Shown here piece after piece: positions 29,367 through 30,636 of a stretch of 64,000 nt of DNA. The notes under the pieces were generated by a model. That model saw nothing but the letters and a program-made list of their open reading frames with translations. It had not been told where the DNA came from and did not search any database. The stretch lies in the IMG/VR virus record IMGVR_UViG_3300028883_000005, positions 18,576 to 82,575 of that record; one strand, written 5' to 3'. This DNA comes from a virus. Each line of letters begins with the position of its first letter. Position 1 is the stretch's first letter. Made by a program: the position numbers and the translations under genes.

Positions 29367-29702
29367 ATGACATCCATCGTTTGTTTTTTAGTGAGGGGGT
29401 TAGGCCATATTATAGGTGAGGACGGAGGAAAGGCCCACCACAAAGTTAATATTAGATATCCAGGTCTGGTGATACCAGTAAATTCCGAAGGCAGAGAGGC
29501 CTACTATCTGCAGTCTATTATACCTGGCTTTATGAAAGACCCCTCCACCATCGCACGATCCTTCAATGTACCTGCTGAGGATATAATTATGAAAGGAGAT
29601 ATAGATCCAGATATGGAAAATTTGTACATCTCATGGAAAGCAGAGCAAATCCGAAAATGGTCGGGTCTTATAATTTCAGGAGGTCCTAAGCGGGCACAGT
29701 AG
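29367..29702 (+). CDS. Hypothetical protein; last gene of + arm
   Basis: RBS AGGAGG; 3' end overlaps convergent gene by 17 bp. Confidence 0.7.
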   Translation: MTSIVCFLVRGLGHIIGEDGGKAHHKVNIRYPGLVIPVNSEGREAYYLQSIIPGFMKDPSTIARSFNVPAEDIIMKGDIDPDMENLYISWKAEQIRKWSGLIISGGPKRAQ

Positions 29703-30636
29703 ATTCATCTATCAACCCTTTAGAGGCAGCTTTTTGCATCCATTCATTAATTGTCATCACTTGCCTAGATTCAATAAGCTGCCTCTGTTTCCACCCTTTC
29801 TTTAAAACATCATTCATAATATCATCTAGCACGTTTGGTCTACCTTTAGCGATATTCCTAAAAGATTTAAGAACCTCCACTCCACCAAAAAGATAATGAG
29901 CTAAAAATCTATTTCTAAGAGAATCATCGTAGTTACTACTATATCCTCTTTTTTCACCATGATGGGCGAGACTCCCTTTATTCCAAATCCATTTTTTCTT
30001 CCCCAAGACTGCCAGTGTGTAATTCATAAAGTGCTCTCCACCAGAGTAAATTCCGAACTCAGGATTCCACCCTCCTGTAAGATCATAAATAGATTTATGA
30101 ATCATCATACCACAAGTTGACATACAAGGCACCTCATAAGGAGTATCAGATTCTCTATACCCTGTAAATCTGTAATCAAAGAAAGCCCCTTTATCCAAGA
30201 GAAATTTGTAAATAAGTTTATGCGGTTCTAGAACCTTATAGTTAATAGGGAGATGAATAGTTCCATCTAATTCTTCCCAATTTTCTTTATAGTATTTAAA
30301 CATAGAATAAATAGAGTCTCTGGTAGGAACAACATGAGAATCACAAAAGAGTAGAAATTTTCCAGAGCTTTTACTAATGCCCATCCTTTTAGCGTTCCAA
30401 TGAGAAAGTTTGGTTTTGTACTCTACATATCTAAGCCAAGAACAAACACCAGCACCTGCTCTGACAGCCTCTCCGGATTTATCCTCAGATCTATCCACAT
30501 AGCCGTCGGCATAGTTATCTACAGCAATGATCTCAAAATCAACTCTTCCTAACAGCTCCTCTGCTATACTGCGAATTGTAAATATCACTTGAGGATACTC
30601 ATTCACGAATGGGATTATAATAGATAGTTCTGCCAT
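29686..30636 (-). CDS. GT-A glycosyltransferase resembling polypeptide GalNAc-transferase catalytic domain
   Basis: SIIIPFVNE, IIAVDN, FCDSHV (DxH), VPCMSTCGMMIHK, GIYSGGE, AHH. Confidence 0.8.
   Translation of the reverse strand: MAELSIIIPFVNEYPQVIFTIRSIAEELLGRVDFEIIAVDNYADGYVDRSEDKSGEAVRAGAGVCSWLRYVEYKTKLSHWNAKRMGISKSSGKFLLFCDSHVVPTRDSIYSMFKYYKENWEELDGTIHLPINYKVLEPHKLIYKFLLDKGAFFDYRFTGYRESDTPYEVPCMSTCGMMIHKSIYDLTGGWNPEFGIYSGGEHFMNYTLAVLGKKKWIWNKGSLAHHGEKRGYSSNYDDSLRNRFLAHYLFGGVEVLKSFRNIAKGRPNVLDDIMNDVLKKGWKQRQLIESRQVMTINEWMQKAASKGLIDESTVPA

Follow-up and report, generated by a model that had tools for sequence, protein, structure and literature searches.

Mucin-type O-glycosylation is regarded as a process of the eukaryotic Golgi, and the protist enzymes of glycosyltransferase (GT) family GT60 are Golgi membrane proteins. 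Taujale et al. (2020, PMC7185993) describe the replacement of the DxD metal-binding motif by DxH as confined to families GT27 and GT60, report that a C-terminal histidine (C-His) binds the metal in GT27, and place GT60 in prokaryotes as well as protists. In mouse GALNT1, the residues named are Asp209, His211 and His344 (Brockhausen 2014, PMC4202792). By the account of West et al. (2021, PMC8724618), GT60 enzymes are polypeptide α-N-acetylglucosamine (GlcNAc) transferases that differ from GT27 mainly by having no ricin-like domain and that, in Dictyostelium and Trypanosoma cruzi, initiate mucin-type O-glycans with GlcNAc on Ser/Thr-rich domains. Here we analyse a 64,000-nucleotide window of DNA (bases 18576-82575 of IMG/VR record IMGVR_UViG_3300028883_000005, a viral record of 82,575 bp from an uncultured phage, complete and bounded by direct terminal repeats), which encodes a soluble 316-residue GT-A glycosyltransferase, hereafter the GT27-like enzyme, together with three proteins that end in threonine-rich tails. 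In functional terms the enzyme is very probably of the DxH polypeptide-N-acetylhexosamine (HexNAc) transferase type, and it is likely to take part in glycosylating the tails.

The AlphaFold2 (AF2) model of the GT27-like enzyme (predicted local distance difference test, pLDDT, 95.2; predicted template modelling score, pTM, 0.93) has a GT-A fold and is least confident after H225, where the blocks within residues 221-240 score 84 and 83. Foldseek retrieved GT27 enzymes for all 32 PDB entries listed to rank 50 (expectation value, E, 1.4e-14 to 1.2e-11; template modelling score, TM, by query 0.62-0.79), and VIA-align, a Foldseek-independent comparison against 48,161 representative chains, placed mouse GalNAc-T1 (8v9q) at Z 26.7 over 291 of the 316 residues, with a root-mean-square deviation of 3.0, and Toxoplasma GalNAc-T3 at Z 25.6, the next match following at Z 19.1 and typical GT2 enzymes at 15-19. 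The aligned part of GalNAc-T1 is its catalytic domain only (chain residues 115-427). This preference for GT27 is specific to the 316-residue enzyme, since a 243-residue GT-A protein encoded nearby, which served as an internal control, ranks GalNAc-T1 only 19th (Z 12.8). Searched against PDB sequences, the family profile finds GalNAc-T10 (E 1.5e-6), TgGalNAc-T3 (6s22, 4.5e-5) and T7 (5.5e-5) and then TarP (2.3e-4), such that GalNAc-transferases precede every bacterial GT2 in the PDB and the DxH, GGE and His columns line up; a single-sequence PDB search is nearly empty, with designed repeat proteins at the top and GalNAc-T10 at E 0.63. The enzyme also matches the Pfam family PF00535 (Glycos_transf_2, E 2.5e-12), a match that does not discriminate in favour of GT2, as 98% of the members of GALNT clusters carry the same family. 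None of the viral proteins in UniProt is closer than 17% identity, and the UniProt phage proteins named 'Glycosyltransferase, GlcNAc' reach a TM by query of 0.53-0.62, below the GT27 enzymes of the PDB.

The motif residues of the enzyme are SIIIPFVNE (5-13), IIAVDN (36-41), FCDSHV (97-102, containing D99-x-H101), VPCMSTCGMMIHK (169-181), GIYSGGE (195-201) and AHHGEKRGY (224-232, containing His225/His226), and from the alignments H225 would be expected to be the third metal ligand. Across 36 homologues of 48-82% identity, E13, N41, D99, H101, G199, G200, E201, H225, G227 and R230 are invariant, and in 25 distant sequences of 20-31% identity H101, G199, E201 and H225 remain so, with D99, E13 and N41 conserved in at least 90%. 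DxD is not present, the second acidic position being His in all 36 close and all 25 distant relatives, and the Trp of the WGGE motif is replaced, to give Y-S-G-G-E in this phage and Y-G-G-G-E in the family consensus. Such conservation, complete or nearly complete even at 20-31% identity, shows in these alignments that the motif set is more than a product of chance.

Relatives of the enzyme are numerous. A word-based search returned 565 homologues, nearly all of them unnamed metagenomic proteins of 305-350 residues, and an exhaustive profile search of 50%-identity clusters returned 122 at E ≤1e-30, 248 at E ≤1e-10 and 1394 at E ≤0.001. PHROGs contains no family that matches the enzyme, NCBIfam yields nothing above noise (PgfS scores 19 bits where the cut-off is 500), and among 50,697 records of cultured phages there is no close homologue, the best being 20% identical. 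The enzyme stops at residue 316 with no match in Pfam to the ricin-type lectin domain PF00652, and it has neither a membrane anchor nor a stem, for no 19-residue hydrophobic segment is found (maximum Kyte-Doolittle value 1.07) and the first beta strand begins at residue 4.

A sequence-only reading of this DNA had called the enzyme GT27-like by GALNT-like motifs in order and a downstream His, had seen no ricin lectin domain, and had named a structural comparison of GT27 with GT2 as a way to check this. Every motif that it listed is present in the protein, the downstream histidine is the pair His225/His226, of which H225 is invariant in close and distant relatives alike, the missing lectin domain is borne out by Pfam and by structural alignments that span the GalNAc-T1 catalytic domain alone, and the best structural matches are indeed polypeptide GalNAc-transferases rather than ordinary GT2 enzymes. 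The likeness to GT27 is supported by the fold, the motifs and the profile match, whereas two defining features of GT27, the lectin domain and the membrane anchor, are missing. Because it has neither of these and shares only 13-16% identity with GT27 enzymes, the phage enzyme cannot be filed as a formal member of that family. GT60 would seem to fit at least as well, as an equally good functional analogue, and for this reason (DxH without a lectin domain) the donor may be UDP-GlcNAc rather than UDP-N-acetylgalactosamine (UDP-GalNAc). The likeness to GT60 is drawn from family descriptions, no solved GT60 structure being among the structural matches, and PF11397, which we take to be the Pfam model covering GT60 enzymes of the Gnt1 type, matches none of 36 family members.

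Two domain associations hint at peptide substrates. PqqD, a peptide-binding module of pathways for ribosomally synthesized and post-translationally modified peptides (RiPPs), forms the N-terminal domain (E 1e-10) of P0243, a distant but full-length member of the family (hhalign E 8.6e-28). In the ESM Atlas, a structurally similar GT cluster from Bacteroidota has a LanC-like domain in 36% of its members. Another family member (P0124) also matches PF02709 (E 3.6e-6).

The threonine tails named by the sequence-only reading are real: three proteins of this phage, the major capsid protein, a 229-residue protein and a 214-residue protein, end in TTAP (Table 1). The 229-residue protein has no family match, and its place in the head-tail connector region is suggested by position only; the gene order, in which the 214-residue protein is encoded upstream of the tape-measure gene (49589-53281; phrog_1533, E 4e-74), would give the latter protein a tail-tube role.

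The same reading had tied the enzyme to these tails, and this link has statistical support. We fetched 76 IMG/VR loci with relatives of 28-54% identity, and in 24 of them a poly-Thr/Ser C-terminal tail lies within 10 kb of the gene (of 26 flagged, we discarded two, L004 and L040, as spurious). Of the 35 whole records with the gene (the larger ones among the 76), 26 contain runs of eight Thr codons, as do 12 of the 13 that are at least 90% complete, and in all 26 positive records the runs lie on the strand of the GT27-like gene. Under the C-terminal tail criterion, four of the nine run-negative records have tails of mixed Thr and Ser, and the remaining five, with neither feature, are all 56-80% complete. 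In a control set drawn with an arbitrary 14-base word (35 viral records of 26-258 kb, 34 of them searchable), eight-Thr runs were found in 0/34 (Fisher p = 1.3e-11). Five metagenome-assembled genomes (MAGs) of 1.8-7.1 Mb were searched in their entirety, and in four of them all runs are on the contig of the gene, upstream and on the same strand; the sole run of the fifth is on another contig. Since a capsid protein related to that of this phage is detectable in only 7/35 records with the gene, and homologues of each of its tailed proteins are found near the gene in 0/76 loci, the association of enzyme and poly-Thr spans different phage backbones.

Among 185,579 species genomes, eight loci were found (L092-L099), all on MAG contigs, of which five are labelled Deltaproteobacteria, Desulfobacteraceae or Thermodesulfobacteriota, and one each Proteobacteria, Thermoplasmatota and Thorarchaeota; by these binning-derived labels there is a weak hint that sediment sulfate reducers are the hosts. 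The five MAGs searched in their entirety belong to this set.

Some of the tailed proteins in related loci deserve separate description. Seven loci (L077, L081, L084, L088, L101, L118 and L139) encode proteins of ~180-195 residues in which a segment NH(A/S)SSP(Y/W/M)F precedes the poly-Thr tail, and which, by this shared segment, are probably one conserved and habitually tagged virion component. In the record L063, rated complete and GC-rich by eye, two proteins contain mucin-like Thr/Ser stretches of ~190 residues, and a second DxH-type GT paralogue of 399 residues, with an N-terminal four-Cys ribbon and the motifs DAH, WGAEGPE and CYHLFR, is followed by a GT2-methyltransferase fusion (coordinates 2863-4188, 6286-7242 and 7252-8451). 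Four records (G016, G021, G027 and G038) have capsid matches with one TGA in the matched frame, where the alignment may run past a stop codon.

Table 1. Features of the glycosylation cassette, the enzyme motifs and the candidate acceptor tails, in positions of the window.
Feature	Position	Strand	Remarks
DxH GT-A glycosyltransferase gene (GT27/GT60-like)	29686..30636	(-)	Open reading frame from ATG, 316 aa, soluble
H225-H-G-E-K-R230 codons; H225 is the C-His counterpart	29947..29964	(-)	Aligned to GH of GalNAc-T (6s22)
G199-G200-E201 codons, counterpart of the WGGE Gal/GalNAc-T motif	30034..30042	(-)	Aligned to iwGGe of 6s22 and 2d7i
DxH metal-binding motif codons, D99-S-H101	30334..30342	(-)	Aligned to LDSH of GalNAc-T10
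Sulfotransferase-like P-loop protein, 222 aa	30760..31428	(-)	Weak Pfam matches to three sulfotransferase families, E 0.018-0.049
GT-A (GT2-type) glycosyltransferase, 218 aa	31425..32081	(-)	PF00535, E 1.3e-7; homologue in 23/76 loci
GT-A glycosyltransferase fold, 243 aa	32081..32812	(-)	AF2 pLDDT 93.8; GT-A matches Z 16.2-12
Class I methyltransferase-like protein, 195 aa	32809..33396	(-)	PF13489, E 5e-4, under the curated cut-off; homologue in 44/76 loci
GT-B-like glycosyltransferase, 376 aa	33371..34501	(-)	Weak PF00534, E 0.02; homologue in 40/76 loci
GT4-like GT-B, near-obligate partner of the GT27-like enzyme	34489..35820	(-)	phrog_2170 glycosyltransferase; 443 aa as called
Thr/Ser tail of 214-aa protein, 18 residues, ends TTTAP	54110..54163 (gene 54107-54751)	(-)	Major-tail-protein position
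Thr/Ser tail of 229-aa protein, 26 residues, ends TTTAP	56248..56325 (gene 56245-56934)	(-)	Connector-region role by position
Thr/Ser tail of major capsid protein, 23 residues, ends TTTAP	57713..57781 (gene 57710-59065)	(-)	phrog_29, E 7e-50; PF03864, E 3.3e-29

The GT27-like gene is the last, in transcription order, of seven co-oriented and tightly packed genes that form a conserved glycosylation cassette, and it is the terminal gene of a late minus-strand operon in which the genes of lysis, fibre, tape-measure and head lie further upstream on the same strand; in related loci, too, the cassette ends with it. A scan of 29200-36400 for promoters and terminators found sites no more frequently than in shuffles. 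The GT4-like GT-B probably starts at residue 24 (~35751), giving 420 residues, because the ESM Atlas protein begins there and homologues align from residue 17 on, mostly from 20-28. Its profile points to GT4 enzymes of the BshA type (E 0.005-0.008), PF00534 accounts for 93-95% of its closest clusters in the ESM Atlas, and a homologue is present in 60/76 related loci. The 243-residue GT-A has no sequence match in Pfam, NCBIfam or the PDB, a PDB profile search included, and its homologue stands immediately upstream of the GT27-like gene in 44/76 loci; single-sequence PDB searches of four neighbouring cassette proteins returned nothing. The sulfotransferase-like protein is a rare accessory member, with a homologue in only one of the 76 related loci (L064), and a sulfated virion glycan, if real, would therefore be particular to this phage lineage.

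Taken together, the explanation that we consider best, and hold as a whole with rather more belief than doubt, is that the gene product is a metal-dependent GT-A glycosyltransferase of the cytoplasm, from the small group defined by DxH and a C-terminal His in place of DxD, which in eukaryotes consists of the polypeptide GalNAc-transferases (GT27) and the polypeptide GlcNAc-transferases (GT60). In the proposed mechanism, Mn2+ and the UDP-sugar would be held by D99, H101 and H225, the loop after H225 would close over the donor, and a hexosamine would be transferred with retention of configuration onto Thr/Ser hydroxyls of the Thr-rich tails of the capsid, connector-region and tail-tube-position proteins. 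The donor sugar favoured is GlcNAc from host UDP-GlcNAc, with GalNAc also possible. The GT4-like GT-B, the two further GT-A enzymes, the second GT-B, the methyltransferase and the sulfotransferase-like protein might then extend and cap the glycan, which would clothe the virion in a mucin-like layer of sugars. A predicted complex of the enzyme with capsid residues 405-451 gave no answer (score 0.01, mark 0.32) and weighs neither way.

The sequence-only reading had made the enzyme the initiator of the tail glycans, and of this claim the statistical link to the tails stands, while the initiating step could also belong to its almost obligate partner, the GT4-like GT-B. In that case the GT-B would add the first sugar to the Thr tails and the GT27-like enzyme would extend the glycan on a sugar acceptor within the same pathway. 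The GT-B matches the GT27-like enzyme in conservation (40-55% identity across loci), the two genes form the minimal cassette in many loci, and among IMG/VR relatives 230 are of the GT-B and 79 of the GT27-like enzyme, numbers obtained with different search patterns. Viewed from the GT-B side, the GT27-like gene follows within 10 kb downstream in 50 of the 57 loci that extend 9 kb or more in that direction, and three of the other seven are on contigs that bear the GT27-like gene elsewhere; because the two enzymes are a near-obligate pair, phyletic patterns cannot tell which of them initiates. The GT-B profile matches GT4 enzymes, and a precedent for a GT-B initiator exists in GtfA/GtfB, the GT4 O-GlcNAc transferase that modifies streptococcal serine-rich repeat proteins. 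Conversely, the GT-B shows no specific similarity to solved protein O-glycosyltransferases (best PDB E 0.005 over ~40 residues), whereas the GT27-like fold match outscores every sugar-acceptor GT-A by 6.5 to 7.6 Z units, PqqD is found as a fusion partner in one member of the family, and the signature of DxH with C-His is, in the account of Taujale et al. (PMC7185993), reported only for two polypeptide-HexNAc-transferase families. We therefore regard initiation by the GT-B as unlikely, and lean, with some caution, towards the GT27-like enzyme as the one that initiates. Three loci (L058, L063 and L069) with no other cassette genes within 10 kb had been considered as minimal cassettes in which the enzyme acts alone, an interpretation that was rejected on finding other GT-A genes in L063.

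Several observations, the near-constant company of the GT-B among them, weigh against the explanation that we favor. The low identity to GT27 enzymes is one, and the structural neighbours in the ESM Atlas are another: bacterial GT2 clusters with Glyco_transf_7C reach a TM by query of 0.82-0.83 against 0.81 for chordate GALNTs, and the acceptors of these bacterial enzymes may be sugars, as an extending role for the GT27-like enzyme would have it. The caution of the sequence-only reading that some bacterial GT2 proteins carry similar motifs was thus well placed. The fusion to PqqD is seen in just one metagenomic sequence, from a contig of 3,098 bp. The records that carry the association are related through the gene, so that the counts are not phylogenetically independent events, and 5/26 positive records have a single matching position. 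Moreover, the GT27-like gene was found in 0/14 viral records with a T9-AP-stop tail, in a search whose positive control passed. Most of these 14 records are fragments, and the two rated 100% complete (G004, 65,100 bp, and G006, 63,971 bp; loci L421-L428; GC 31-33%), which have TAP-ending poly-Thr tails and internal linkers, contain no PF00535 genes, no GT-B and none of the cassette families profiled. Since complete tailed genomes exist without it, Thr tails do not need the GT27-like enzyme. A T12 scan points the same way: among the 80 loci listed as matches, three are on contigs known to bear the gene and two more on contigs with a distant GT-A match of 23-25% identity. The tail filter flagged 19 of these 80, of which ~6 are true C-terminal poly-Thr tails by eye, and internal linkers make up most of the T12 runs listed from viral contigs, some of these being in giant-virus bins.

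Such tails and linkers in complete phage genomes that have none of the tested cassette families, and the prevalence of internal linkers in the T12 scan, are what would be expected if the cassette glycan were placed on a non-virion target, such as a host envelope polymer, a lipid or DNA, and the poly-Thr segments were unglycosylated spacers that merely share phage lineages with it. We consider this highly improbable. The cassette proteins examined all look soluble, and no flippase or polymerase is seen among the seven genes; the cassette closes the late operon and is read in the same direction as the structural genes; the poly-Thr association extends across unrelated capsid types; and in 4/5 MAGs the sole poly-Thr runs in megabases of sequence adjoin the gene, against 0/34 in the random control. 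There is also experimental precedent in mycobacteriophages, where phage enzymes are described as O-glycosylating virion proteins (PMC11256854, PMC12363180).

If tail glycosylation by the GT27-like enzyme is correct, the locus would represent phage virion O-glycosylation by an enzyme type so far tied to eukaryotic mucins. A wider proposal, which we put forward tentatively and think more doubtful than probable, is that there is a large viral branch of DxH polypeptide hexosamine transferases (at least 122 clusters at 50% identity and E ≤1e-30), that tailed phages infecting prokaryotes of sediment and soil use it to carry out the whole of mucin-type O-glycosylation in the cytoplasm, with portable poly-Thr tags that any virion protein could receive, that the enzyme resembles an ancestor of the animal mucin initiator, reduced to a minimum and free of the lectin domain, and that the eukaryotic pathway may descend from prokaryotic or viral enzymes. 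With a soluble relative of 316 residues that consists of the catalytic domain alone and is paired with short, portable poly-Thr acceptor tags, the origin of the GT27/GT60 clade could be put to the test; if the proposal is true, the enzyme would also provide a simple means of adding O-glycans at chosen sites of recombinant proteins in bacteria. Many environmental phages would then be sugar-coated, which could affect adsorption, stability and grazing. The family is common, with its 565 homologues, 76 IMG/VR loci and 122 clusters.

Our literature searches turned up no phage or prokaryotic protein glycosyltransferase of the GT27-like or GT60-like kind paired with poly-Thr proteins, and GT60 is merely listed among viral CAZy genes in one preprint. 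To our knowledge, phage virion glycosylation has been shown only in mycobacteriophages, and Freeman et al. (2023) reportedly found virion O-glycosylation in Che8, Corndog and Myrna. In these phages, phage-encoded glycosyltransferases and methyltransferases are described as modifying capsid and tail-tube proteins (PMC11256854, PMC12363180), and Che8 gp110 is called essential for capsid glycosylation (PMC12363180). The present system resembles theirs in having candidate acceptor tails on the capsid protein and on the tube-position protein, known here from the genes alone, and differs in its enzymes, the GT27-like family and the other GT-A proteins showing no detectable relation to Che8 gp110. 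The latter is a 211-residue protein of the GT25 type (PF01755, E 1.2e-7), and homology of the Che8 type was rejected at hhalign probabilities of 0.2% between gp110 and the GT27-like family and 1.3% between gp110 and the 243-residue GT-A; for the 218-residue GT-A, BLASTP finds no similarity to gp109 or gp110.

With the bacterial GT2 proteins carrying Glyco_transf_7C (~295-311 residues, from Bacillota and Actinomycetota), the enzyme shares models that align over 287-291 residues (TM 0.82-0.83), in a comparison by predicted structure; unlike the phage enzyme, these are cellular proteins. It is unlike the GT27 enzymes in having no ricin-type lectin domain, stem or membrane anchor, in its low identity, in Y-S-G-G-E for W-G-G-E, and in its expected location, the cytoplasm of an infected prokaryote rather than the Golgi lumen. 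It is like them (among others mouse GalNAc-T1, human T2, T4, T10 and T12, and Toxoplasma GalNAc-T3) in its GT-A domain, superposable on that of GalNAc-T1, in the aligned positions of DxH, GGE and the C-terminal His, in its candidate acceptors, which are unstructured, Thr-rich and Pro-ended peptides, and in the lower-confidence loop after the His, which falls at the place described for the catalytic flexible loop of GALNTs (PMC4202792). Lastly, with GT60 it shares the combination of DxH and a catalytic domain that stands without a lectin domain.

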